A stretch of DNA of 49,450 bases from a virus (lineage: Duplodnaviria; Caudoviricetes). A program made the translations under genes and the position numbers. Each line of letters begins with the position of its first letter. Within the stretch, counting starts at the first letter, position 1. The notes beneath the pieces were generated by a model that saw only the letters and a program-made list of their open reading frames with translations, was not told the DNA's origin and did not search any database. Where the stretch lies: the IMG/VR virus record IMGVR_UViG_3300010362_000024, positions 1 through 49,450 of that record; one strand, given 5' to 3'. Below, one piece after another: positions 25,584 to 40,173 of this stretch.

Positions 25584-26501
25584 CTAGAAGGGCTCCTCAT
25601 CTTCATCAGGAGCCTGCTGCGCCTCAAGGATGGCGTCGATGACCTCGCTGCGCTTCATGCCGGCAGGAGTGATGTCGAAGTCTCGCGCTGTCTGCGCAAG
25701 TTCGGTGCGGTCCATGGCGGTCAGTTGGTCACGGGTGAGGTACTCTGCCTCATCCTCATCCTCCATGACCTCTTCTTCATCCTCCATGACTTCATCGTCT
25801 TCAAGCACTTCCTCCTCAACGGCTTCAGACTCTGCCTCGACGATGGCATCCACGAGGGTGGACTTGGTGAGGCCGCCCAACTTGATGCCGTACTCCTTGC
25901 CAATGGCCTTCAACTCTGCCACTGACATCTGAGCCAACTCGCCCATGCGAGCCTCAGCATCGAATGCCTCTTCCTCATCCTCCAGCACCTCATCCTCTTC
26001 CATGACGTCCTCATCCTCTTCCATGAGTTCGTCATCAGAGGTGGCTACTTCATCCTCGCCATCATCAGGGAACACCGAGCCATACTCGGCGCGATAGTCC
26101 CCATTCTGGTTGCTGCCACCGCGGACACGCAACTTGACGGTCTTGCCCTTGAGCACCTTGTCGGTGTCCAACTCACCCTTGCGGTTCTTCTTGCCGTCGG
26201 TGAAGCCCACTGCCTGCAGCAGTTGATCGAACTTCTGGTTGCTGAAGTCGTTCTCAGATGCCGACCCAGGCAGCGGGATGTACAGCCACAACTGCGCACC
26301 CTTGTGCTTCTCATCGAGACACGAGAAGATGACCTCCAGGCGTGGCCGGCTCTTGTCCTCGTTGCCACCTTCCTTGGCGAATCCAGCGTTGGTCTCGCTG
26401 ATCAGGAAGCGATAGATGCCCGGCTTGGGCGGCTCCATCGTCCCAACAGCGCGTGCTGACTCTGGGTCAGACTTGGTGATGTCGTACTTGACCTTGACCA
26501 C
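25584..26501 (-). CDS. DUF669-like ssDNA-binding protein with an acidic tail and two Rho-N/HEH-like repeats
   Basis: 'EPPKPGIYRF' OB-fold start; follows the Sak4-like ATPase; Glu/Asp-rich linkers; repeats 'MSVAELKAIGKEYGI...KSTLVDAI' and 'MDRTELAQTARDFDI...RSEVIDAI'. Confidence 0.65.
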   Translation of the reverse strand: MVKVKYDITKSDPESARAVGTMEPPKPGIYRFLISETNAGFAKEGGNEDKSRPRLEVIFSCLDEKHKGAQLWLYIPLPGSASENDFSNQKFDQLLQAVGFTDGKKNRKGELDTDKVLKGKTVKLRVRGGSNQNGDYRAEYGSVFPDDGEDEVATSDDELMEEDEDVMEEDEVLEDEEEAFDAEARMGELAQMSVAELKAIGKEYGIKLGGLTKSTLVDAIVEAESEAVEEEVLEDDEVMEDEEEVMEDEDEAEYLTRDQLTAMDRTELAQTARDFDITPAGMKRSEVIDAILEAQQAPDEDEEPF

Positions 26502-29425: not shown

Positions 29426-31402
29426 CTAGATGATGCGCACACGGCGTAACTCATCAAGACTGGCGTTGGTCGCAGCCTTGCGGCCGGTCAACTCCATGAT
29501 GTACTCATCGATGGTGCCCAATGTGCGGAAGGTGTACACCGTCACCTGATGGATCCGTGAGACTCGATGGACCCTGTCCTCGGCTTGCACCTGGTCATCA
29601 GGATCCCAAGTCTCATCAAGGATGAAGACGGTGTTGGCGTTGTCGAGGGTGATGCTCACACCACCGGCTGTCGTCGTCATCACCAGCACTCTGGCGCCAT
29701 TGCGGCCTTGAAAGTCAGCCTGTATGGCATCGCGCTGCTTCTGATTGACGGAGCCAGTGATCTTTGCCACCCTCACGCCTTGCTGCTGAAGCCAGTCATG
29801 AACGAGATTCACGACCGTAGCAAACTGGGAGAATATGACAACCTGCTCGTCAGACTCTCCCTCAATGACACCAAGTTCATCGAGTTTGTCCAGCACTGAT
29901 TCAAGCTTGCCGCTGTCCTCAGTGGGCTTCAATTTGCCCCCATCCACGGTATGCACGCCAAACGAGAACTGCTTCAAACGCACAAACTCCGCAAGAACGC
30001 TGGATGCTGTGATGTCGATGCCATCGATGATGGCCGCCGAATCTTCAGCAAACTCCCTGTACACACGCGCCTGCTCTTCTGTCATATCGCACCAAACCTC
30101 AATGTGATCCTTGGGAGGTAGCCAAGGAGCCACTGCGGCTTTGGTGCGACGAATCAAGTAAGGCTGGAGCATGGCATAGAAGTCATCTTCAATCCGCCGG
30201 CAGCCGTCGCAGTCTGGGCGGCCAAGCGCGAAGTCATCGTGACCTTGGTGCGCTTGACAGTGCCGCAGACTGTTGCTGATGTCCCCCATCCGTGACCATT
30301 TGTTCGGTATGCGGTCACACCACAGGTCGGCAAACCGCCACTTGGACGAGAAGACATCAGGGTTCAGCCAGTGCAGAATGCCATAGAGGTTGATGATCTT
30401 GCCTCCCATGGCTGTGCCTGTGAGCGCGAACCTCTTGCCCTTCACAGGCTCAACCTTCAGCCCGCTCATGCCTTGGGCTGTCAGGGAGTCAGGGTGCCTC
30501 AGTGCATTCTTGTGAGCCTCATCAATGATGATGTTGCTCCAAGCAGTCTTGTGCAGGATTGGGAACTCAGATACCAGTTCATACACGCAGTCAGGGCAAG
30601 ACTTGAACTCACGTATGTTTGCCTTTGACTTGCGCATGAAGGCGTGTATGGGGCACTTCTCCAGTATCGTGCGGTACCTGACTTGGTCTGGATTGACGAC
30701 TAGCCACACCGGCAAGCCGGCATTGTGGTACTCCGCAAACTCATCAAACGCTGCGAGTTTCTGGGCCTTGGTGCCCACAGACACCACAACCTTGTGCGGT
30801 TGACAACCCTCCAACTCACGGCGCCACGTCGAGGTCAGTGCAGTCTTTGGCGCCACAACAAGTGTGGGACCAGCATCTGTACCAGCCTCGAAGATGGAGC
30901 CAATGGTCTCCAAGGTCTTGCCGAGGCCTGGCTCATTACCGTTCAACGGGTTGCGCTGAACGACGCCAAACATGACATCCGCGGCTTGGTAACTGGACTC
31001 TTGCCGCAGCGCTTGCTTGACTTGCTGGGCGGACATGAACTTGGCCTTGGGCCCAACGTGGAGTTTGACGTACAATTCCGGCAGAAGGTCAGGCAGCCGT
31101 ACAAGTTCGGCACTGGATGCTGTTGACAACTCCTTGAGTTGTCGCTCCTGCGCCACCAGGCGTTGCCCCCATACCTTCAAGGCATTCCCCAACTTGAGAT
31201 CGGCACCAAACACCTGACGCAACTGCCGTGCTACGTTGATGTCCAAGGGTAGTGACCAGAACGGTGTACCGTTGTGACTCTTGTCTTTCGACACAAATCT
31301 GGCACCGCTGAGTGCCTTCACAGCCGCGACTGCTTGTGGGCTGTACGGGAACCACACCTCAATACGTTTGTGGTTCTCTGACACTTCAGCAAATACTTCC
31401 AT
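29426..31402 (-). CDS. SNF2-family (SF2) helicase with Zn-finger-like insertions
   Basis: 'EPGLGKT', 'IIDEAH', 'LTGT', 'VIFSQF', 'GVSITL', 'QAEDRVHR'; AAGGAG RBS abuts ribozyme HHR1. Confidence 0.9.
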   Translation of the reverse strand: MEVFAEVSENHKRIEVWFPYSPQAVAAVKALSGARFVSKDKSHNGTPFWSLPLDINVARQLRQVFGADLKLGNALKVWGQRLVAQERQLKELSTASSAELVRLPDLLPELYVKLHVGPKAKFMSAQQVKQALRQESSYQAADVMFGVVQRNPLNGNEPGLGKTLETIGSIFEAGTDAGPTLVVAPKTALTSTWRRELEGCQPHKVVVSVGTKAQKLAAFDEFAEYHNAGLPVWLVVNPDQVRYRTILEKCPIHAFMRKSKANIREFKSCPDCVYELVSEFPILHKTAWSNIIIDEAHKNALRHPDSLTAQGMSGLKVEPVKGKRFALTGTAMGGKIINLYGILHWLNPDVFSSKWRFADLWCDRIPNKWSRMGDISNSLRHCQAHQGHDDFALGRPDCDGCRRIEDDFYAMLQPYLIRRTKAAVAPWLPPKDHIEVWCDMTEEQARVYREFAEDSAAIIDGIDITASSVLAEFVRLKQFSFGVHTVDGGKLKPTEDSGKLESVLDKLDELGVIEGESDEQVVIFSQFATVVNLVHDWLQQQGVRVAKITGSVNQKQRDAIQADFQGRNGARVLVMTTTAGGVSITLDNANTVFILDETWDPDDQVQAEDRVHRVSRIHQVTVYTFRTLGTIDEYIMELTGRKAATNASLDELRRVRII

Positions 31403-31410
31403 ATCGCTCC

Positions 31411-31475
31411 TTGACCTATCTCGTCAGTGCTGGGCGGTCAACCCACAGCAGACCCACCTATTGGTGGGTTTCGAC
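31411..31475 (-). ncRNA. Type II hammerhead ribozyme HHR1
   Basis: GUC-GAAA-CCCACC(AAUA)GGUGGG-UC^-UGCUG...CAGCA-CUGACGA-GAU; loop UUGACC pairs with tail GGUCAA; predicted cut 31451|31450. Confidence 0.9.
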
Positions 31476-31654
31476 TACTCAGCCACAACCTCATAGCGCG
31501 TCTTGATGCCCAAAGCCTTAGCCATCTTGTTGGCCTGGTCACAGACGTACTTGGCTTCCACCTTGGACAGTGGTACCGGCGCGATGGTCTTGCCACCACC
31601 GTGACCGGCGGTGTGAAGAGCACCATCAGTGGTGCGCACAACGTACTTCTCCAT
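31475..31654 (-). CDS. Small hypothetical protein (59 aa)
   Basis: MEKYVVRTTDGALHTAGHGGGKTIAPVPLSKVEAKYVCDQANKMAKALGIKTRYEVVAE; AAGGA RBS; its TAG overlaps HHR1. Confidence 0.65.
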   Translation of the reverse strand: MEKYVVRTTDGALHTAGHGGGKTIAPVPLSKVEAKYVCDQANKMAKALGIKTRYEVVAE

Positions 31655-31851
31655 GTTGTCCTTTCTTACCTTGTGTGGGTCTCTCGTGGGCGAAGGTGAC
31701 CCGGTAGCACTCCCCTACCGGGTGCACCGTTCACGCCCAGTGCAACTGTGCTGCAGGTGTGAATCTCGGCCGGCCAAATCGACAGAGATTCCCGCTCGTT
31801 CCCCCAGCATGGTCCACAATTGCATCCAATGAGCCTGCTCACAGGTTCCCA

Positions 31852-31912
31852 TTGCCTGCTCATCAGGTTGGGGCGGCACTCCCAACGACGCACAACTATG
31901 TGCGTTTCGCAG
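31852..31912 (-). ncRNA. Type II hammerhead ribozyme HHR2
   Basis: CUGC-GAAA-CGCACA(UAGU)UGUGCG-UC^-GUUGGG(AGUGCCGC)CCCAAC-CUGAUGA-GCAG; loop UGCC / tail GGCA; cut 31887|31886. Confidence 0.92.
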
Positions 31913-31985
31913 ATGCGGCGTGACCCGCCGGCCACGAATGACCGACGGGCCACAACCGCGTTATCCGCCAAGCAGGAGCGATGGC

Positions 31986-32777
31986 TCAGCGGACGCTTGT
32001 GATGTCCTCGATGGCGACAGTCTTGGCAAGACCGTTGTCATCAGTGAACTTCGCCAGCATCTTGCCCCTGGCGGTCTTGCCGACCTTCAGACCACTGCCA
32101 ATCTTGACCGTGGCCTCTGCGCCGTTGTCCGTGTACTTGATGGTCTTGCCGTCGATGGCATCCTTCACGTCGGCGGCGGACATGCCCTCAAAGGTGATGG
32201 GCGCTGCCTTCTTGGAAGCACGCTTGGACGCGCGCTTCTCAGCCGGAGGCTTGGCAGGACGGTGCTCCTCATACTTGCCATACCGGCCACCCTTGCCCAC
32301 GAACGACATGTGGGGATCGTGGCCAGCCTCCTTGTACAGCGCCTGCACCTGAGCCTTGGTCAGCACCGGGTCAAACGATGCACCGATGCGAGCCCACCCG
32401 ATCTTGTCATCGTCGCGCATCTTGACGATGGTGTCAGGGGTGGGCTTCCTGTTGACCTTGGGCTGCGTGGCACGGATGTACATCACCTGCGCGGTGACCT
32501 GGTTGAGATTCAACTGCTCAGCAATGGCCTTCAGGCTGAGACCTTCCTCATCGCGCAGGCGCACGACTTCGGCCTGATTCTCGTCATACTGCTCCTTGCG
32601 GGCAGTACGCTTGGCCTCGGCCTCAGCCTTCTTGGTGGCCTTCATGGCTGCCTTCTCGGCAGCCTCTTCAGCACCATTGTCCTCAGCCGGAGCAGCCTTC
32701 TTGGTGGCCTTGGCAGCCTTCTTGGCCGGTGCCTTCTTGGGCACCGGGTCGATGACTCCACGCTTCCTCACTGGCAT
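31986..32777 (-). CDS. Lys/Ala-rich DNA-binding protein with two HTH-like repeats
   Basis: Histone-H1-like 'KKAPAKKAAKATKKAA'; HTH-like 'VVRLRDEEGLSLKAIAEQL' and 'IVKMRDDDKIGWARIGASF'. Confidence 0.7.
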   Translation of the reverse strand: MPVRKRGVIDPVPKKAPAKKAAKATKKAAPAEDNGAEEAAEKAAMKATKKAEAEAKRTARKEQYDENQAEVVRLRDEEGLSLKAIAEQLNLNQVTAQVMYIRATQPKVNRKPTPDTIVKMRDDDKIGWARIGASFDPVLTKAQVQALYKEAGHDPHMSFVGKGGRYGKYEEHRPAKPPAEKRASKRASKKAAPITFEGMSAADVKDAIDGKTIKYTDNGAEATVKIGSGLKVGKTARGKMLAKFTDDNGLAKTVAIEDITSVR

Positions 32778-32836
32778 TCCAATCATTCCCTTTCCGTTTG
32801 GGGTTCATTTACGGAATCGTGACCCTACTACACCAT

Positions 32837-32902
32837 GACTATGCTCGTCAGACCGGAGGCAGTCGGGCTCCGGTGACCGCACATTTCTGTGCGGTTTCGC
32901 AT
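32837..32902 (-). ncRNA. Type II hammerhead ribozyme HHR3
   Basis: AUGC-GAAA-CCGCACA(GAAA)UGUGCGG-UC^-ACCGGAG..CUCCGGU-CUGACGA-GCAU; loop GACU / tail AGUC; cut 32875|32874. Confidence 0.92.
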
Positions 32903-32903
32903 T

Positions 32904-33215
32904 CTACTCCATGTACTTAACCAACCTATCGCAGAGGTATGCAATCTCCCCATGGTTGATCTTCAAGTGGGGATATGCCCAATAGAGCGTGAGCGTCATG
33001 AGGGTGACTAGGCTCAATGACCTCTCGTCAAGTTTGCCCTCTTGGTACTCATACTCTGGCTCAGTCACCTCCAGATTGGAGTCCGAGTCCTGCAACGTGT
33101 CAAGTACGTCAGACCATTGCGCGCCGCGCCAGTGGGGGTTTACCCTTGTGAAGTTACGTAGGGCAAGCCTGGACGTACCAGGCATATGTGTCTCGACAAT
33201 GAGAGTGGGGTCCAT
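32904..33215 (-). CDS. Hypothetical protein
   Basis: 103 aa; GGAGG RBS; stop 1 nt before HHR3. Confidence 0.65.
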   Translation of the reverse strand: MDPTLIVETHMPGTSRLALRNFTRVNPHWRGAQWSDVLDTLQDSDSNLEVTEPEYEYQEGKLDERSLSLVTLMTLTLYWAYPHLKINHGEIAYLCDRLVKYME

Positions 33216-33440
33216 TCATATCACCTCCCTCTCAATGAGACGCTTTGCCATCGCGATCGTGATAACACTTGGACCGCGCACTCCACAAATGAAGCCGATC
33301 AACGACCATGCCTCATCTGAGAGTTCATCCATCTTGCAAGCGGCCACCAACTTAGAACGTCCAGTGACATCCCTGTAGCCATACGCAAGGTCGATGGCGC
33401 GGTCCAGACGATTGATCCAGTGTGGGATATCATCTCCCAT
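33216..33440 (-). CDS. Hypothetical protein
   Basis: 74 aa; AAGGAGCGAA RBS downstream of HHR4. Confidence 0.6.
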   Translation of the reverse strand: MGDDIPHWINRLDRAIDLAYGYRDVTGRSKLVAACKMDELSDEAWSLIGFICGVRGPSVITIAMAKRLIEREVI

Positions 33441-33458
33441 TCATTTCGCTCCTTGTCG

Positions 33459-33523
33459 TGGTCTGTCTCATCAGGATGGGTAGACCAGTCCCCATCAACC
33501 GCACATATGCGTGCGGTTTCGAC
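33459..33523 (-). ncRNA. Type II hammerhead ribozyme HHR4 (GUU site)
   Basis: GUC-GAAA-CCGCAC..GUGCGG-UU^-GAUGGG(GACUGGUCUA)CCCAUC-CUGAUGA-GAC; loop UGGUCU / tail AGACCA; cut 33497|33496. Confidence 0.9.
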
Positions 33524-34192
33524 TCAAACTGCATTCCGCCGGCACCAAGGACCAATCCCCAGTTCTCTCGACAATTCATCAGTCAGATGCTTGAAGCACT
33601 TGCGACATCTGCCCAACTCCTTGGCGAACAGGAGACCAGACTTCTCAATACCGTGTTCCTTGATGGCCTCGCAAGCCTGCTGTACTTGTGGCGCTGGTAT
33701 GCGAATGTTGCGGTGACCACCGACCACCCTTGTGAGGAAGGTGCGACCCTTCCACTTGCCGTCATCTGGCGTATTGACCCAGAAGAAGTCCAGGTCATTG
33801 TTGCCTGTGGCACTAGGGACCGCATACCCTCCATCGGGCAGTACAATCTCCACCGCACCCTTGCGGGGCAAGGCTTTCAGCCACTCGATGACCATTGAAG
33901 CCTCGGCTTGCGACACCTCCTTGCCACCCATGACATCCTCCAGCCTTTCAACGAATGGGAAGTCCCACTCTGGGAGGTTTGCCGGCGGAACAACTCTGTT
34001 GCCAGCAAGGTCATTGATGTACTTGGCCTGGGGTTGTGTCATAGGACCCATCCCTGGCTTCCATGTGGTGGTGCGTTTCGGCGCGGGCATGTCAGGCATG
34101 TGTTGCTGGACTGGCCCGGCCGCGGCATAGCATGCCTTGACCTCATCAACGGTACTGTGGCTCGCACCACAGTATCCACATCGTATTGCCAT
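33524..34192 (-). CDS. Hypothetical protein with N-terminal CxxC...H...C and C-terminal DUF6011-like Zn finger
   Basis: True start MAIRCGYCG at 34192 (GGAGCGAAC RBS); C-terminal 'CRKCFKHLTDELSRELGIGPWC'. Confidence 0.7.
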   Translation of the reverse strand: MAIRCGYCGASHSTVDEVKACYAAAGPVQQHMPDMPAPKRTTTWKPGMGPMTQPQAKYINDLAGNRVVPPANLPEWDFPFVERLEDVMGGKEVSQAEASMVIEWLKALPRKGAVEIVLPDGGYAVPSATGNNDLDFFWVNTPDDGKWKGRTFLTRVVGGHRNIRIPAPQVQQACEAIKEHGIEKSGLLFAKELGRCRKCFKHLTDELSRELGIGPWCRRNAV

Positions 34193-34202
34193 GTTCGCTC
34201 CA

Positions 34203-34264
34203 TTGGCAGTCTCGTCAGCCGTGGAATGCCAATCCACGGAACGCACATCACTGTGCGTTTCGAC
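34203..34264 (-). ncRNA. Type II hammerhead ribozyme HHR5 (GUU site)
   Basis: GUC-GAAA-CGCACA(GUGA)UGUGCG-UU^-CCGUGGA..UCCACGG-CUGACGA-GAC; loop UUGGCA / tail UGCCAA; cut 34240|34239. Confidence 0.9.
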
Positions 34265-34475
34265 CTTTGTCACGTCCTAGGTCGATGATCCGCTCGCTGT
34301 CACTGTTCAGGCTCCAGCGTTCACGGATGCGACGGTCGATGTCACCCCAGGTGTCCTTTGTGATCTCATCGGCTGCCATATCGGATGCCACGTCGGCGAT
34401 GCTCGCTGATGTCAGCGGTGCACCGACGTACAGCATCTCAGTGATGGCCTTGTCGATCAGTTCATCGATGTCCAT
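34248..34475 (-). CDS. Hypothetical protein
   Basis: 75 aa; AAGGAGCGAA RBS; stop codon lies in the HHR5 stem III loop. Confidence 0.65.
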   Translation of the reverse strand: MDIDELIDKAITEMLYVGAPLTSASIADVASDMAADEITKDTWGDIDRRIRERWSLNSDSERIIDLGRDKGRNAQ

Positions 34476-34483
34476 TTCGCTCC

Positions 34484-34548
34484 TTGCTTGTCTCGTCAGT
34501 CATGGGGTAGCAAACTCCCATAAGACCCATCCGTAGATGGGTTTCGAC
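34484..34548 (-). ncRNA. Type II hammerhead ribozyme HHR6
   Basis: GUC-GAAA-CCCAUC(UACG)GAUGGG-UC^-UUAUGGG..CCCAUGA-CUGACGA-GAC; loop UUGCU / tail AGCAA; cut 34524|34523. Confidence 0.9.
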
Positions 34549-34854
34549 TCATCCCTCAGTAGGTAGGCAACCTATCGACCTGTAGTAACTCTCCAGGTAC
34601 TTCAGCGCGTCATCACTGCGACGCGCCATGGCGCAGAGCCTGTCCTCAACCTCACTCATCGCAAACACGACACGCATGCGACGGTTGAAGTTGTGGTTGA
34701 TCTTGACAGTGAGCCGGTACTGCTCGCCAAGGTCAGCGTCGGCAGCAATCTGCTGGCGATGAAGGTCGGCGCGCTCACTGGCAAGGTCGCATTCCCTGCT
34801 GAGCAGTCTCTGGTGATTGGCAATGGCCTCGTTGACTTGCGTCTTGAGTGTCAT
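34549..34854 (-). CDS. Hypothetical coiled-coil protein
   Basis: 101 aa; ATGA-coupled upstream; TGA directly abuts HHR6. Confidence 0.6.
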   Translation of the reverse strand: MTLKTQVNEAIANHQRLLSRECDLASERADLHRQQIAADADLGEQYRLTVKINHNFNRRMRVVFAMSEVEDRLCAMARRSDDALKYLESYYRSIGCLPTEG

Positions 34855-35057
34855 CGCTTGGCACCCTTGGGATCGATGTCGAAGGTGGCATCAGTGACTT
34901 CATACTCACTGGTGCCGTCGGCGCCCAGGCCGCTCAAGTTCACATTGCCAACGGCATCTTGGAATGCCGTTTGAATGGCCTCCTCAATCTCGTCACGGCT
35001 TGCGAACTTGCCTTCGACACGCTCCACATCAATGGAGAATGTCCCGCTGAACTGCAT
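34851..35057 (-). CDS. Hypothetical protein (68 aa)
   Basis: True start MQFSGTF at 35057 after the AAGGAGCGAAGG RBS. Confidence 0.65.
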   Translation of the reverse strand: MQFSGTFSIDVERVEGKFASRDEIEEAIQTAFQDAVGNVNLSGLGADGTSEYEVTDATFDIDPKGAKR

Positions 35058-35070
35058 CCTTCGCTCCTTG

Positions 35071-35132
35071 TTGGTAGTCTCGTCAGTCGTGGCATACCAA
35101 GCCACGAGACGCACATTTCTGTGCGTTTCGAC
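35071..35132 (-). ncRNA. Type II hammerhead ribozyme HHR7
   Basis: GUC-GAAA-CGCACA(GAAA)UGUGCG-UC^-UCGUGGC(UUGGUAU)GCCACGA-CUGACGA-GAC; loop UUGGUA / tail UACCAA; cut 35108|35107. Confidence 0.92.
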
Positions 35133-35133
35133 A

Positions 35134-35424
35134 TCATTCCCAGGGCGGCATCTCCTTGGACCAGTCATGCTCATGGTCGTCAGAACGCCCACAGATATCG
35201 CATGTTGCGACACCTTCAATGGGCTCTGCGTTGTCCTCAAGGTACTTGAGGTACTTGCAGCCGTCCTTGTGGTCGAGGGCATGTCCATCCCATACAGCGC
35301 CGCATGCGAGGCATTCGTCGCCGCGGTAGATGGACTCTTGGCACTCAAAGAAACGCTCATACGTGAGGTCTGGCATCTCCTTGGGTGGCATGTCAAACTG
35401 TGCCCGCCACTTCTCCTGTGACAT
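35134..35424 (-). CDS. Hypothetical Zn-binding protein
   Basis: True start MSQEKW at 35424; CxxC...H...C and CxxC...H motifs. Confidence 0.65.
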   Translation of the reverse strand: MSQEKWRAQFDMPPKEMPDLTYERFFECQESIYRGDECLACGAVWDGHALDHKDGCKYLKYLEDNAEPIEGVATCDICGRSDDHEHDWSKEMPPWE

Positions 35425-35438
35425 GTTCGCTCCTTGCT

Positions 35439-35502
35439 TTGGCAGTCTCGTCAGTACCAACATGCCAAGTTGGTAGACCGCACATCTCTATGCGGTTTCG
35501 AC
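35439..35502 (-). ncRNA. Type II hammerhead ribozyme HHR8
   Basis: GUC-GAAA-CCGCA..UGCGG-UC^-UACCAAC(UUGGCAU)GUUGGUA-CUGACGA-GAC; loop UUGGCA / tail UGCCAA; cut 35476|35475. Confidence 0.92.
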
Positions 35503-35706
35503 AAACACTTCCTCATACTTGCCGATCCTAGTCTTGGGCAGATCGCGGAGCCTGAGCGTGACGTAGTCACGTCCAACCTTCACGTCGGTGATCGTTGCTG
35601 TCCGTTTGAACGGCAGTACCATCACCATGCCAGGCTTGAGGTCACTCGCCACAACCAGCCTTGCTGTCTGCGGTGGCTCCTCATTGAGGTAGTCAGGGGT
35701 CATCAT
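35488..35706 (-). CDS. Hypothetical SH3/KOW-like protein
   Basis: 72 aa, 'ASDLKPGMVMV'; the last codons (VETA*) are encoded by HHR8. Confidence 0.65.
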   Translation of the reverse strand: MMTPDYLNEEPPQTARLVVASDLKPGMVMVLPFKRTATITDVKVGRDYVTLRLRDLPKTRIGKYEEVFVETA

Positions 35707-35714
35707 TCGCTCCT

Positions 35715-35775
35715 TGGCGTCTCATCAGCGGTGGATGCCATCCCACCGGACCCCACGAATGAGTGGGGTTTCGAC
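35715..35775 (-). ncRNA. Type II hammerhead ribozyme HHR9
   Basis: GUC-GAAA-CCCCAC..GUGGGG-UC^-CGGUGG(GAUGGCAU)CCACCG-CUGAUGA-GAC; loop UGGC / tail GCCA; cut 35749|35748. Confidence 0.9.
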
Positions 35776-35779
35776 ACAT

Positions 35780-36520
35780 TCACTTGTTCAACTCTCCGCG
35801 GTTGCCGCCGACCCTGGTCTGTCCAAGGTCGGCACGGTTGGCAGCACTCCGCCCAGAGGCAGCAGCCTCCCAGTCGGTCTGGGTCCTACGCTGTCTGGCC
35901 GGCTTGGTGTTCAACGAGTCCATGTACAACTGGACTTGCTTGCCGCGATCGATGATCGCAAGTTCCATGCCATTGCTGCTACCACTGGTCTTGATGGCCT
36001 CCTGTTCGGTGACCCTCTTGACCTCACGCAGACGCTCACCAATGCGGCGAGCGTAAGCGCTGCGGTAGGAACGGCGCCACTTGCCAGCACCCGATGACTT
36101 CTTGATGTCATCCGGCATCTCGCGGTTCTGCTCACGAGCACATTGCAACCACAGGCTCGTGTAGAGCATCTTGACCTTGTCAACATCAGACTTCCATCCG
36201 ATGAAGTCAACGCCAGCGTACGTCTTGAACCGCTCTGGTGAGTAGAGCAGGCAACGAACCCCATTCGCATCAGCAACTTCCACGGCCATCTCAACCATGG
36301 CATTGAACAAGCCGCTGCGCTTCATGGTGAAGTGCTCGGTGACGATCTTGTCGTCCGACTTGCCCTGCACGCTGAGCATCGCCTCATCAATGGCCCATAG
36401 GGTCATCAACTCTTGAGCCTTGGCGAAGAATGTCTCCGATTCGGGCCCACTGGCGGACTCAGCCTTGCGGATGAGTTTCTGGATCTTGTCGATCCATTTC
36501 TCTTGTTCCGTCATTTCCAT
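35780..36520 (-). CDS. DUF2786-domain protein
   Basis: N-terminal 'IDKIQKLIRKAES...E...FFAKAQELMTLWAID'; C-terminal 'GRSAANRADLGQ'. Confidence 0.75.
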   Translation of the reverse strand: MEMTEQEKWIDKIQKLIRKAESASGPESETFFAKAQELMTLWAIDEAMLSVQGKSDDKIVTEHFTMKRSGLFNAMVEMAVEVADANGVRCLLYSPERFKTYAGVDFIGWKSDVDKVKMLYTSLWLQCAREQNREMPDDIKKSSGAGKWRRSYRSAYARRIGERLREVKRVTEQEAIKTSGSSNGMELAIIDRGKQVQLYMDSLNTKPARQRRTQTDWEAAASGRSAANRADLGQTRVGGNRGELNK

Positions 36521-36538
36521 TCGCTCCTTGCTTGCGCT

Positions 36539-36601
36539 TAGCCTGTCTCGTCAGCGGTGAGAGGCTACCTCACCGGACCGCACAAACTGTGCGGTTTCGA
36601 C
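36539..36601 (-). ncRNA. Type II hammerhead ribozyme HHR10
   Basis: GUC-GAAA-CCGCACA(GUU)UGUGCGG-UC^-CGGUGAG(GUAGCCU)CUCACCG-CUGACGA-GAC; loop UAGCCU / tail AGGCUA; cut 36576|36575. Confidence 0.92.
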
Positions 36602-36877
36602 TCACAACACCTCCAGGAGACGACGTAGTACATCCTTGGCAACCTGCTCAGGCAGGTCGTCAATGTCAAACAAGTACGTGCGCCGTTTGATGCCCAAGTC
36701 ACCGCTACGCAGGAGAATCCTGCCAGACATCCAGACGGATGTCGCGGACTTGATGCTGATCTTGTCAACGCTGATCTCGATGTCACTCTCCCCATAGGGT
36801 TCCATGACAACGAAACGCTCGCTGTCGAGCAGGTCGATGTCGATCACCAACATGGTGCTGATCTTCAATGCCATCAT
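36602..36877 (-). CDS. Hypothetical protein
   Basis: Start MMALKIS after AAGGAGCGA; TGA abuts HHR10. Confidence 0.65.
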   Translation of the reverse strand: MMALKISTMLVIDIDLLDSERFVVMEPYGESDIEISVDKISIKSATSVWMSGRILLRSGDLGIKRRTYLFDIDDLPEQVAKDVLRRLLEVL

Positions 36878-36884
36878 TCGCTCC

Positions 36885-36948
36885 TTTGCCTGTCTCATCA
36901 GTCACGAGCGGCAAACCTCGTGAGACCCACTTGTCAGTGGGTTTCGAC
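36885..36948 (-). ncRNA. Type II hammerhead ribozyme HHR11
   Basis: GUC-GAAA-CCCAC..GUGGG-UC^-UCACGAG(GUUUGCCG)CUCGUGA-CUGAUGA-GAC; loop UUUGCC / tail GGCAAA; cut 36924|36923. Confidence 0.92.
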
Positions 36949-37122
36949 ACTCTCCAGGTCCAGCAGGTCACCAGCACCGGTGAAGGTGCCGGCCCATCCG
37001 ATGCCATCGACCCAGCGCCACACCATCTGCGTGGCAAACTCAGCCGGGCAGCCCTGCCTCGTCACGACTGACTCCCACATGTGGGCGCCAATCGCGCAGA
37101 GGAACCATACGGTGAACTCCAT
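36934..37122 (-). CDS. Hypothetical protein
   Basis: 62 aa; AAGGAGCGAA RBS; ends VETH* inside HHR11. Confidence 0.55.
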   Translation of the reverse strand: MEFTVWFLCAIGAHMWESVVTRQGCPAEFATQMVWRWVDGIGWAGTFTGAGDLLDLESVETH

Positions 37123-37133
37123 TGCTTCGCTCC

Positions 37134-37199
37134 TTGGTTTGTCTCATCAGCGGCAGGGTAACCAACCCCACCGGACCGCACTGGCTGTGCGGTTTCGAC
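37134..37199 (-). ncRNA. Type II hammerhead ribozyme HHR12
   Basis: GUC-GAAA-CCGCAC(AGCCA)GUGCGG-UC^-CGGUGGGG..CCCUGCCG-CUGAUGA-GAC; loop UUGGUU / tail AACCAA; cut 37174|37173. Confidence 0.88.
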
Positions 37200-37201
37200 G
37201 T

Positions 37202-37471
37202 TCAGGCTGCCGCCTCATCAGCGTCGTGGAGACGCTTGACCGCAGCCTTGGAGATGCCGTACTTGGCGGCGATGGCCGCCCAGGCGATGCCCTGCGCACG
37301 CTCCTTGCGCACCCGGCTGGTCGTGGCCTTGACCTTGACGACCTTGGTGGTGGCGCGGAGGTAGTGCTTGTACGCGGTCAGCGGGTGGCAACCCACGGCC
37401 TCACCGATCTCAGGCCAGGTCTTGCCATCCACGTCACGCATCTCGATGATGGTGTCAACGTTCAGTTCCAT
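37202..37471 (-). CDS. Double-HTH DNA-binding protein (89 aa)
   Basis: Start MELNVD at 37471; 'KTWPEIGEAVGCHPLTAYKHY' and 'IAWAAIAAKYGISKAAVKRL'; paralogous to 37560-37811. Confidence 0.7.
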   Translation of the reverse strand: MELNVDTIIEMRDVDGKTWPEIGEAVGCHPLTAYKHYLRATTKVVKVKATTSRVRKERAQGIAWAAIAAKYGISKAAVKRLHDADEAAA

Positions 37472-37494
37472 TGCTTGCTTTCTCTCTTTCGTTG

Positions 37495-37559
37495 TCGCCT
37501 GTCTCGTCAGTACTGGATGGCGAATCCCAGTAGACCCCACAAATCCGTGGGGTTTCGAC
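37495..37559 (-). ncRNA. Type II hammerhead ribozyme HHR13
   Basis: GUC-GAAA-CCCCAC..GUGGGG-UC^-UACUGG(GAUUCGCCAU)CCAGUA-CUGACGA-GAC; loop UCGCC / tail GGCGA; cut 37533|37532. Confidence 0.92.
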
Positions 37560-37811
37560 TCAAGCCGCCTCAGCGTACAACTCCTTGACGACCTTCTTGC
37601 TCGTGCCGTACCGCGCAGCGATACGGCCCCAAGCCGTGCCGTTGTCACGGTCACGGCGGACACGCGTCACCGTGGCGGACTGTCCGATGTTCTCGGTGGC
37701 TCGCATGTAATAGCGGCGCACCGTGACCGGATGCAGACCGTAGAGGTCAGCAATCTCCTTGATGGAGTAGCCATCCTCGTGCATGGTGACGATGTTCTTG
37801 AACTCGCTCAT
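37560..37811 (-). CDS. Double-HTH DNA-binding protein (83 aa)
   Basis: Start MSEFKN at 37811; 'YSIKEIADLYGLHPVTVRRYY' and 'TAWGRIAARYGTSKKVVKEL'. Confidence 0.7.
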   Translation of the reverse strand: MSEFKNIVTMHEDGYSIKEIADLYGLHPVTVRRYYMRATENIGQSATVTRVRRDRDNGTAWGRIAARYGTSKKVVKELYAEAA

Positions 37812-37831
37812 TTCACTGGTTCCATTCTTTC

Positions 37832-37896
37832 TTGTCTGTCTCGTCAGCGGTGGGCGACAAACCCCACCGGACCCCATTGACTACTGGGGTTTCGAC
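37832..37896 (-). ncRNA. Type II hammerhead ribozyme HHR14
   Basis: GUC-GAAA-CCCCA..UGGGG-UC^-CGGUGGG(GUUUGUCG)CCCACCG-CUGACGA-GAC; loop UUGUC / tail GACAA; cut 37870|37869. Confidence 0.9.
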
Positions 37897-38072
37897 TTGT
37901 TCGACCGCAGCACAGCCTCATGCTTGGCATCGCGGCGGCTCATCGAGCAGCCGGTACACCAGACGGTCTTGTTCTTGGGGCTCACACGGCGGCAGTCAAA
38001 CTCACCGCCACCGCAGAACCACTTGCCTCGCGGCACTTGCCTCATAGGCTTGCCGCGCTTGGGCTTCAACAT
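37881..38072 (-). CDS. Small basic Cys-rich protein (63 aa); first gene of the early operon
   Basis: MLKPKRGK... after an AAGGAG RBS; C-x6-C...CxxC; stop lies inside HHR14 stem III. Confidence 0.6.
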   Translation of the reverse strand: MLKPKRGKPMRQVPRGKWFCGGGEFDCRRVSPKNKTVWCTGCSMSRRDAKHEAVLRSNKSKPQ

Positions 38073-38081
38073 TCGTGCTCC

Positions 38082-38195
38082 TTGGTGACTCATCAGGGCA
38101 GGGTACCAATCCTTGCCAACCTGGGTGCCATCGGCGTTGCTTCAATGAGGGGCAACGCGCCCAGCGGGGTGACGAGCCCACCCCCAGGTTTCGGT
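38082..38195 (-). ncRNA. Variant type II hammerhead ribozyme HHR15 with an enlarged stem III insert
   Basis: C-GAAA-CCUGGG[~60 nt structured insert]CCCAGG-UU^-GGCAAGG(AUUGGUA)CCCUGCC-CUGAUGA-G; loop UUGGU / tail ACCAA; stem II reduced to about 1 bp; cut 38118|38117. Confidence 0.6.
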
Positions 38196-38198
38196 GAC

Positions 38199-38330
38199 CA
38201 TCGGTGCGGTTTCATTGAGTGAACGCACGCCCAGTCTGGAACGATTGTTGGAACGATTCGTTGCTCACGTTCATCGCAGTAGCGTCCACGGAGAGGCTAC
38301 TGACCCGTTCATCGATGCGGTTTCATTGAG
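38199..38330. repeat. 21-bp direct repeat pair flanking a tandem TGGAACGATT (candidate early promoter/operator)
   Basis: catcggtgcggtttcattgag (38199-38219) and catcgatgcggtttcattgag (38310-38330); tggaacgatt at 38237 and 38249. Confidence 0.6.
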
Positions 38331-38586
38331 GGAGACGCATGCCCGACCGTGAGCAACGTAGTGACGGATCGGCTTGACGTCCATCCCATCCTGCGCGGCG
38401 GACTCTGGGGAGTCCACGCATCGTGGGGGAGAGGTCAAGCACCACCCGCCGCACAATTCGTGCGGCCGAAGGTAGCCCAAGCGTCAGAAGTGGCCCAGAT
38501 TCCCATCGTTTCCGCACCGCCCGTTACTTGCCAGCCCCTACTGGGGTCCCATTTGGGACGTCTTCAGGAGTCATCGTCCGCACATA

Positions 38587-38823
38587 ATCCCCACACTTTC
38601 GTGGGGTAGGGGTGGGAGCCAGACGACTGCGGCTTTCACGGCTGCGGCGGTTTCGGCGTCGCTTATCCCCACACTTTCGTGGGGTAGGGGCGACGCGCCG
38701 ACCTTCTTGGGAGCCGAGACTGCGGAATCTGTGCGATTCATCCGCTATCGCTACCGGCCGTCATCACCCTACGGCGCAAGTCTGGGGCCGTTCCCTGGGG
38801 GTTTCCCCCACACTTTCGTGGGG
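38587..38823. repeat. Three copies of the hairpin repeat CCCCACACTTTCGTGGGG
   Basis: atccccacactttcgtggggtagggg at 38587-38612 and 38665-38690; core copy at 38806-38823. Confidence 0.8.
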
Positions 38824-39082
38824 TTCCTCCCAGGACCGCTCCGGCGCTTCCCAGCGCCGTCGATCCCCACAACGTACTGCAGCCCGCAGGGTACCGCACC
38901 GAGCACACCGAAACCTGAAGTTGTCAGAAAGTTGTGCTCCTACCTGCAGCGGAGGATGGAAGAATGCCACGATCGTTGTGACCCCATCTGACGTGCGGTT
39001 TCGCACAGATTCGTGGGGGATATGGGCGCACGTCCAAACCTCGGCCGATCCCCACGAAACGCACAGAACTGTGCGGTTCATC

Positions 39083-39589
39083 GAACCCCACTCGTTTATG
39101 GGAACCCCACGAGTCTGTGCTGCCCGGTGGATAGGTAGGTTACCTACCCATTTCGGGCGAACCCCATCCGTTTATGGGAACCCCACCAGAACGTGGGGTC
39201 GCGATCGACGTTTCCCCACCATCCTCGAGGTTTCCGCACGTCAGAGTGGGTTTCTGGGGTTTCGGCTCCCAGCCGGCCACTGTTTCCGCACTTCAAGTGG
39301 GACACGTGCGTGACGACGTGCGGCTTTCTAGCCTCGTGGGCCTCTCGTGGGCCGTCGTGCCCGACAACCCCACTTCGGCACGGACCCCTGGGATCGGCCG
39401 GAAATCTGACGTGCGGCCCCACTGCAAACCCACGTCGCCCCAGAGACGGGTCACCGTCCGCGGCGATCCCTGGGCCCTACGTGCGCCACTCGTGGGCTAC
39501 GGTGCGGCTTCAACCACAGACCCCACCCGCTAGTGCGGTCGGGTGGGCCTTGTCCACCGAGTGGGTTGTATAGGTAGCCTACCTATCCA
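39083..39589. repeat. Nested direct and inverted repeats in the large non-coding region
   Basis: gaacccca-nn-cgtttatgggaacccc at 39083 and 39159 flank the palindrome ggtaggttacctacc (39134-39148); tggataggtaggttaccta (39128-39146) recurs inverted with one mismatch at 39571-39589. Confidence 0.65.
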
Positions 39590-39606
39590 ATTGGCCACGA
39601 AACCCA

Positions 39607-40173
39607 CTAGTTTGTGCGCCACTCCGCAAACACCGCACGATACGTGCAAAGAATGTCCTCAACATCATCCGCCGGACAAGCCCGCAACTCCGGGGGCAAG
39701 TCAGGACGCTCAATGCGCTCCCCAGCAAACCGCACACCCGTAAGGGTTTCCCAGCCAAGCCTGACACCAGCATGGAGGTACACGCTCATCGGCTCATGCC
39801 CAAGAAACGCACCAATCCGCACAGCAACGTCATACGTGGTGACCGGCCCGATGCCCGGCCCACCACAGGACCGCACAAGGTCGTGCAACTCATCAAAGTT
39901 GCGGCACGCCCGTGCCGACACGTACTTGTCCGTCAACCGCACAGATAGCGCATGCAAAGCGCGCCTGGGAACGCGACTCTGATGGTTGTGCATCTTGCCG
40001 CGGTCATCGCGTGAGCGACAAGCACGCACAACGGCTGTGCGGTACGTTGGCGCTGTGCGGGCATACTCGACCACCCTGTCACGACGGCTGGGCGGGAAAC
40101 GGGTGTAGAAGTCATCGACCACCTCACCCAACGTCCGCAGCACAACGCCATTCAACTCGCGCTTGACGTCCAT
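39607..40173 (-). CDS. Helix-hairpin-helix-fold hypothetical protein (possible DNA base-processing/modifying enzyme)
   Basis: 'PGIGPVTTYDVAVRIG' HhH motif plus 'HNHQSR', 'VYLHAG' and 'EDILC'; TGATG-coupled to the endolysin. Confidence 0.55.
   Translation of the reverse strand: MDVKRELNGVVLRTLGEVVDDFYTRFPPSRRDRVVEYARTAPTYRTAVVRACRSRDDRGKMHNHQSRVPRRALHALSVRLTDKYVSARACRNFDELHDLVRSCGGPGIGPVTTYDVAVRIGAFLGHEPMSVYLHAGVRLGWETLTGVRFAGERIERPDLPPELRACPADDVEDILCTYRAVFAEWRTN

Follow-up and report, generated by a model that had tools for sequence, protein, structure and literature searches.

Fifteen type II hammerhead ribozyme motifs at the gene boundaries of a presumed early block in an uncultured soil phage

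The viral record IMGVR_UViG_3300010362_000024, analysed over its whole length of 49,450 bases (the window), derives from an uncultured soil phage with 57% G+C and carries fifteen type II hammerhead ribozyme motifs. All lie on the minus strand within positions 31411–38195, where they separate the small genes of a presumed early block. Because stop codons precede and start codons follow the predicted cuts at mostly short distances, the arrangement is best read as a polycistronic early RNA that is cut into units of one or two genes, and in this the proposal of an initial, sequence-only reading (the first-pass annotation) holds as the most probable explanation. Such cuts would probably turn the early RNA into insulated, protected one- or two-gene messages, with the ribozyme cassettes doubling as joints for gene swapping. 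The novelty that the same annotation implied for a ribozyme-per-gene operon does not stand: clusters of this type, with the same processing idea, were described by Perreault et al. (2011). The array is a large and regular example of what that work described, to which it adds a palindrome in stem III and matching arrays in cultured phages.

Fifteen ribozymes in one cassette layout

A structural parser that required the invariant elements GAAA, UH and CUGANGA together with three paired stems found 14 motifs when stem III was limited to 70 nucleotides (nt) and 15 when the limit was 90 nt (HH1–HH15, Table 1). It found none on the plus strand or in the rest of the window, and none in any of 60 dinucleotide shuffles of the window searched on both strands with the 70-nt settings. 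The core, CUGAYGA with GAAA and GUC or GUU, is intact in all 15 copies, each of which has loop-closed stems I and III and an open stem II. Neither type I or III hammerheads nor decayed or one-mismatch-core copies were detected in the window. The copy number, strand and extent of the array, its invariant catalytic core, the tally of 12 GUC and 3 GUU triplets, all 15 predicted cut sites and the resulting fragment sizes of 248–988 nt agree with the first-pass annotation. The comparison with Rfam type II models that it proposed succeeded in part: RF02276 matches 12 of the 15 copies, ten above and two below the gathering score, and leaves three (HH7, HH10 and HH11) without a match. The weakest copy is HH1, which falls below the Rfam cut-off and for which prediction favours an alternative fold. 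A separate assembly of the probable source DNA run, from the same sample and hence not independent, has no letter differences over the stretch.

The repeat has a constant layout. A stop codon is followed by the 5' arm of stem II, GAAA, the stem III hairpin, the GUH cut site, the stem I hairpin, CUGAYGA, the 3' arm of stem II, a pseudoknot strand, a Shine-Dalgarno sequence and a start codon. Ribozymes occupy 15 of 17 gene boundaries, in keeping with the earlier "nearly every gene boundary", and the earlier count of one or two open reading frames (ORFs) per unit is likewise correct; in the two-ORF units the ORFs are tightly joined. No predicted cut lies inside an ORF. The distance from a stop codon to the cut that follows it is 8–99 nt, with four stops inside stem III, and start codons are located 42–88 nt past the cut in 14 of 15 cases, HH14 with its long leader being the exception. 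AAGGAG occurs no more than 20 nt past the core in 10 of 15 copies. On the minus strand, none of the ribozyme gaps contains a terminator-like or sigma-70-like site, and the promoter motif of related phages (see below) has no copy in the window, making a single long transcript plausible.

Pairing is preserved within copies while the sequences diverge. Stem III is paired in 90 of 90 cells, stem I in 88 of 90 and stem II in 43 of 45; with strands crossed between copies, the paired fractions are 0.67, 0.54 and 0.78, respectively. Each of stem I positions one to four uses four to five pair types. The earlier statement that stems I and III vary but keep pairing is thus borne out for pairing and not for equal variability, stem III being far less variable. 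A further element, absent from that account, is a pseudoknot of 4–7 Watson-Crick pairs between loop I and the tail, present in all 15 copies. It comprises on average 5.4 pairs within a copy vs 3.7 between crossed copies, and none of 100000 tail permutations was as good. This loop I–tail contact is required for fast cleavage by type II hammerheads (Perreault et al., 2011, PMC3088659). In 13 of 15 copies, 8–24 nt separate the end of the pseudoknot strand from the start codon; in six, the strand overlaps the Shine-Dalgarno sequence by 1–2 bases.

Table 1. Positions of the ribozymes, neighbouring genes and related arrays; L-numbered positions refer to other phages
Feature	Position	Strand	Cut after (triplet)	Remarks	Basis
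HH1	38080..38195	-	38118 (GUU)	1-base-pair stem II, branched stem III	parser with 90-nt limit, Rfam below cut-off
HH2	37831..37896	-	37870 (GUC)		parser, Rfam
HH3	37494..37559	-	37533 (GUC)	stem III palindrome	parser, Rfam
HH4	37134..37199	-	37174 (GUC)	stem III palindrome	parser, Rfam
HH5	36885..36948	-	36924 (GUC)	stem III palindrome	parser, Rfam
HH6	36538..36601	-	36576 (GUC)	stem III palindrome; before DUF2786 gene	parser, Rfam
HH7	35712..35775	-	35749 (GUC)	stem III palindrome; no Rfam match	parser
HH8	35438..35502	-	35476 (GUC)		parser, Rfam
HH9	35070..35132	-	35108 (GUC)	stem III palindrome	parser, Rfam
HH10	34483..34548	-	34524 (GUC)	no Rfam match	parser
HH11	34202..34264	-	34240 (GUU)	stem III palindrome; no Rfam match	parser
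HH12	33458..33523	-	33497 (GUU)	stem III palindrome	parser, Rfam
HH13	32835..32901	-	32875 (GUC)	stem III palindrome	parser, Rfam
HH14	31850..31911	-	31887 (GUC)	stem III palindrome; 232-nt leader to next ORF	parser, Rfam
HH15	31411..31475	-	31451 (GUC)	stem III palindrome; before helicase	parser, Rfam
16 small ORFs	31475..38072	-		14 ribozyme-bounded units (12 one-ORF, 2 two-ORF)	mostly without family match
83-residue double helix-turn-helix protein	37560..37811	-		after HH2	family/homology search
89-residue double helix-turn-helix protein	37202..37471	-		after HH3; 43% identical to neighbouring 83-residue protein	homology search
246-residue DUF2786/DUF7168 protein	35780..36520	-		after HH6	family match
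222-residue DUF6011 protein	33524..34192	-		after HH11	family match
266-residue protein	31986..32786	-		long helix, double helix-turn-helix, C-terminal SH3/Sm-like barrel	fold and homology search
SNF2-type helicase	29426..31402	-		first replication-block gene, after HH15	family match
Non-coding region, likely control region	38200..39620	.		between lysis genes and array; 11 palindrome copies, 38464-39618	
Yara array	L173:10729-16494			8 hammerheads	parser; 4 survive stricter parser
Wentworth array	L175:9239-15396			5 hammerheads and one core variant	parser and reading of sequence
phiRKBJ001 array	L176:10174-16179			5 hammerheads and same core variant	parser and reading of sequence

The window encodes a siphophage gene set, with every gene on the minus strand (family scan of 46 proteins). 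Tail and lysis genes are followed by a 1.4-kb non-coding region, the 16 small ORFs, the SNF2 helicase, an exonuclease and a Sak4-like protein, and then by a DnaE-type polymerase, thymidylate synthase, primase, terminase, portal and capsid; the phage is apparently lytic. We call the small-ORF block early because it has the control region on one side and the replication genes on the other. The top cultured matches of the helicase (30–33% identity) are Nocardia phage P3.1, Gordonia phages and Streptomyces phages Yara, Wentworth and phiRKBJ001, and the replication genes follow the same order as in these relatives; both observations make an actinobacterial host likely. Within the block, the double helix-turn-helix (HTH) of the 266-residue protein is paralogous to the 83- and 89-residue proteins. 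Its barrel gives weak fold matches, some of them to WYL regulators and all with E > 0.02, and the protein has no close relative among viral contigs. A weak promoter-like site at 32901-32928 ends just before HH13; its score ranks third in the genome and does not exceed noise. In the related locus L139, the homologous gene has its own promoter.

A palindrome shared by stem III and the likely control region

In 11 of the 15 ribozymes, stem III is formed by a palindrome, C[CG]CAC-N5/6-GTG[CG]G, that occurs 26 times in the window as compared with a mean of 1.5 and a maximum of 5 in 30 shuffles. Besides the 11 copies in stem III, 11 are located in 38200-39650 and four elsewhere. Half-sites reach 35 per kb in the non-coding region vs fewer than 6 outside the array, and an unguided dyad scan of that region ranks CAC-N6-GTG first (11 vs 1.5 expected from half-site counts, p 5e-7). 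The two halves pair in 11/11 ribozyme copies vs 7/15 of the others (Fisher p 0.007), and mismatches occur without exception at the C/G position; non-pairing halves are found in 5 of the 11 palindromes of the non-coding region. The spacer is fixed in length and free in sequence. The flanks of non-ribozyme palindromes lean to GAAC, close to the core GAAAC. Elsewhere the palindrome is rare, being present in just 3 of the 171 type II hammerheads of other phages. These properties fit a DNA site that was co-opted as stem III.

We tentatively consider, as an addition to the processing model, that stem III also functions as a DNA operator, recognised by a dimeric regulator that would act in the control region and at each ribozyme. 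Transcription control (repression or a roadblock, stoperator-like) would then be coupled to RNA processing, and the binder would perhaps be a double-HTH paralogue. The same 20 bases could, on this conjecture, serve as operator and as stem III arm with its core flanks (GAAAC...GUH), gating both transcription and cutting at early boundaries. The enrichment of the palindrome, the fixed length and free sequence of its spacer and its rarity in the hammerheads of other phages all favour an operator, and mismatches confined to the C/G position outside ribozymes indicate degenerate half-sites, as expected of a DNA site; the three paralogous double-HTH proteins encoded in the array are candidate binders. 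On the other hand, the pattern was picked post hoc, six-base spacers would equally suit a tetraloop closed by one pair, several of them having GNRA or UNCG loops, and shared ancestry of stem III with the control-region repeat would explain the likeness without ongoing binding. Furthermore, loci L139 and L141 carry the HTH homologue and no palindrome (co-occurrence was assessed in these two, the HTH alignment being too divergent for a locus search), and the fold matches all have E > 0.02.

Mycobacteriophage stoperators (McGinnis, 2022, PMC9283540) resemble the motif in having many sites across an actinophage genome. Stoperator sites, however, lack symmetry, and the protein that binds them is a monomer, the immunity repressor of temperate phages, whereas the motif described here is a spaced palindrome in a ribozyme arm and a putative operator. 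The control-region repeats may also serve replication or packaging, as the equivalent region of P3.1 holds a different iterated motif.

Two further features lie in this region. A 24-base direct repeat with a palindrome half-site (38199-38222 and 38310-38333) is located just upstream of HH1 and has a weaker third copy in HH1 stem III; it is a candidate promoter or operator element. At 39025-39033, two contigs of DNA run X1 terminate and overlap by 9 bases; depth falls there from 8.9 to 6.3, possibly marking a genome end inside the control region or merely low coverage.

Hammerhead arrays in other phages

An exact pattern scan of viral contigs returned at least 131 stretches, and 78 loci with wide flanks represent 71 contigs; L156, L158 and L159, apparently the window itself, and L001-L008, also the window, are excluded from these counts. 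Among the matches listed, three of the 71 contigs (L014, L060 and L063) carry 8, 8 and 9 type II hammerheads in the stop–ribozyme–Shine-Dalgarno layout, each with a distinct Shine-Dalgarno tail. tblastn gave no link from these three to the window proteins. The layout, as read from sequence, is widespread, and the fifteen copies of the window exceed both the tested published cases and the arrays found elsewhere (at most nine among the matches listed), a difference of scale. One ORF that follows a hammerhead, L060:11693-12270, may be ArdA-like; ArdA is the gene that Perreault et al. (2011) reported next to hammerheads.

The search of related phages put forward in the first-pass annotation was productive. 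In all three Streptomyces phages examined, the block that precedes the helicase contains type II hammerheads: 8, 6 and 6 motifs in Yara, Wentworth and phiRKBJ001, respectively, when core variants are included (Table 1). The variant reads CCGAUGA in place of CUGAUGA (L175:13879 and L176:14469), and Yara is canonical at that boundary. Copies in these phages belong to a subtype with a 4-base-pair stem II and, by eye, no loop I–tail pseudoknot. Rfam scores all of them below cut-off (none of five records exceeds it, and three of five have matches at E <= 0.1), so that their identification comes from the parser and from reading the sequence. Gene order is shared between these phages and the window, and in all three a hammerhead directly precedes the DUF2786 homologue, as HH6 does in the window. 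Comparison of Yara with Wentworth shows a ribozyme before three homologous genes in both phages and before three in only one. The GenBank records of the three phages annotate no hammerheads, the genome announcement of phiRKBJ001 does not mention them, and we found no literature on Streptomyces-phage hammerheads in a search that covered subscription journals little. blastn of the array and of one ribozyme against cultured phages returned nothing useful.

Relatives hold other per-gene devices in their early gaps. The first early block of Yara (L173:5265-9339) has a cassette of hairpin, promoter and Shine-Dalgarno sequence before nearly every gene; its promoter, TAGC-N17/18-TAKAGT-like, recurs in Wentworth, phiRKBJ001, P3.1 and L139 and is absent from the window. 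In P3.1 (L172:2230-7254), an iterated GC-rich motif occupies the control region and long imperfect hairpins, possibly RNase III-type sites, fill the early gaps. Those of Gordonia phage BiPauneto contain neither ribozymes nor long hairpins. A motif of 20–32 bases with five or six copies in L139 (L139:7034-9495) was rejected as a ribozyme substitute; it is located inside early ORFs. In Yara, two tRNA matches above the Rfam cut-off (L173:25531-25614 and 26349-26414) are missing from its record; BN phages are said to lack tRNAs (PMC8852317).

Probable processing of the early transcript and its alternatives

We infer cleavage in this phage, and with it stabilisation of the products and a benefit to the phage, from the anatomy and covariation observed above. 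The pseudoknot would fold co-transcriptionally and allow fast cleavage, as is established for the class. The upstream piece would keep its stop codon and have the stem III hairpin, bearing a 2',3'-cyclic phosphate, as its 3' end, while the downstream piece would begin with a 5'-OH on a base already paired in stem I and be able to retain the pseudoknot. Each gene would be insulated from its neighbours and shielded from 5'-end-dependent decay, like transcripts carrying the synthetic RiboJ, and the outcome would be high early expression of host-takeover genes. Copies are homogenised within a genome and gained or lost at single boundaries in relatives, and the cassettes are therefore likely joints for gene duplication and swapping.

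Several observations weigh against this model. A 5'-OH end may also trigger decay, as known from glmS and RNase J; loading of a 5' exonuclease needs an unpaired 5' end, and pseudoknot-free folding predicts a post-cut 5' end that is paired from the first base in just 11 of 15 copies. Among four copies folded in the same way, HH1, HH5 and HH15 have competing structures in the prediction. Predicted Shine-Dalgarno accessibility is nearly the same in cut and uncut RNA, with no gain seen after cleavage. A promoter driving the block was not found by sigma-70 or relative-trained scans. Finally, the array is dispensable in the lineage: hammerheads are absent from P3.1, from BiPauneto and from 10/10 helicase-related viral loci (35–53% identity), eight of which include DNA upstream of the helicase. 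One of the ten is the closest syntenic relative, L139, which shares the HTH and DUF6011 genes and has overlapping early ORFs.

Alternatively, the cassettes might persist mainly as repeats that promote duplication, loss and swapping of genes, like PeSL in T4-type phages, or as selfish elements, with cleavage merely tolerated. We regard this as unlikely, since stem I and the pseudoknot covary as the sequence diverges, which lowers homology yet keeps catalysis, and since all 15 cores are intact, with no decayed copy in the window. No unit-skipping joint was found in the contigs of one DNA run, although contigs drop rare variants. What speaks for such an origin is that the adjacent units after HH2 and HH3 encode 43%-identical paralogues, that the ribozyme-bearing boundaries, like the gene order, are not the same in Yara as in Wentworth, and that each genome has its own cassette subtype. 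PeSL itself provides a precedent (Arbiol et al., 2010, PMC2839356): like the array, it is a small regulatory cassette repeated between non-essential early genes and linked to modular shuffling. It consists, however, of a promoter and a terminator, neither of which was found in the window's gaps, where the cassette combines a ribozyme with a ribosome-binding site; the promoter cassettes in the first early block of Yara are PeSL-like.

Lower still is the probability that cleavage shortens message life, through RNase J acting on the 5'-OH and the loss of upstream ribosomes, and thereby allows rapid shut-off of early genes. In most copies the new 5' end is predicted to be paired from its first base, which disfavours a 5' exonuclease, and every piece has its own ribosome-binding site. 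The overlap of the pseudoknot strand with the Shine-Dalgarno sequence in six copies, where ribosome loading could compete with cleavage, is nevertheless in line with shut-off, as are the glmS precedent and the suggestion that processing yields differing stabilities (PMC6765202).

Two other explanations are highly improbable. The first is that the cut ends (5'-OH and cyclic phosphate) are rejoined, each gene then yielding a circular or reshuffled RNA. Circularisation would restore a hammerhead whose stem II has 3–4 base pairs in 11 of 14 units, but just 1 base pair in the other three; the sharing of stem II follows from common origin, the 46 scanned proteins include no RtcB-type ligase, and Perreault et al. 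(2011) sought spliced or circular products without finding any. The second is that the motifs stay uncut in the cell and serve solely as hairpins, either bound by protein or terminator-like. This would accord with the short stem II (1–5 base pairs), the competing predicted folds and the four stop codons within stem III, where terminating ribosomes could melt the stem; yet a short stem II is normal in active type II hammerheads (Perreault et al., 2011) and 15 invariant cores would be hard to maintain without catalysis.

The processing model has its closest parallel in the clusters of Perreault et al. (2011, PMC3088659), for which single-gene mRNA processing was proposed. As in the window, these are type II hammerheads with a short stem II and a loop I–tail pseudoknot, located between small phage genes; same-strand ribozymes flank single prophage genes or short blocks, as they do in the window's 14 units, and triple arrays cleave in vitro and in Escherichia coli. 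Their text reports two or three per tested fragment, as compared with fifteen in one run here. The window differs further in its uniform stop–ribozyme–Shine-Dalgarno–start cassette, in its apparently lytic phage and in the stem III palindrome shared with the control region. In D. vulgaris, cleavage is documented for three type II hammerheads that neighbour phage-like genes (PMC8782182). RiboJ raises mRNA about twofold and protein 2–10-fold (PMC6206723); it is engineered, used once per construct and derived from a satellite RNA, whereas the window copies are natural, intercistronic and of type II with a pseudoknot. Theta ribozymes of gut phages (Kienbeck, 2024, PMC10879173) are likewise phage self-cleaving RNAs that process transcripts, but have an HDV-like fold and are tied to tRNA 3' ends. 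A 2026 paper on RNA-virus ribozymes and translation concerns eukaryotic viruses. Beyond Perreault et al. (2011), our literature search, with little coverage of subscription journals, found no array of this size and no operator inside a hammerhead.

Reviews have called the function of hammerheads in bacteria and phages open (De la Pena, 2017; Weinberg, 2019), and the genome described here punctuates its early genes with ribozymes in a very regular manner. Yara, Wentworth and phiRKBJ001 are lytic, have laboratory hosts and carry matching arrays at homologous positions, which makes hammerhead function testable during infection. The 15 sequence-divergent, pseudoknotted copies form a ready natural set of insulators for actinobacterial engineering. 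If stem III is indeed an operator, self-processing of RNA would be coupled to the control of transcription in a new way. Within one phage group, the same gaps hold ribozymes, promoters or long hairpins, or are left empty, suggesting that these are interchangeable ways of making single-gene early messages.

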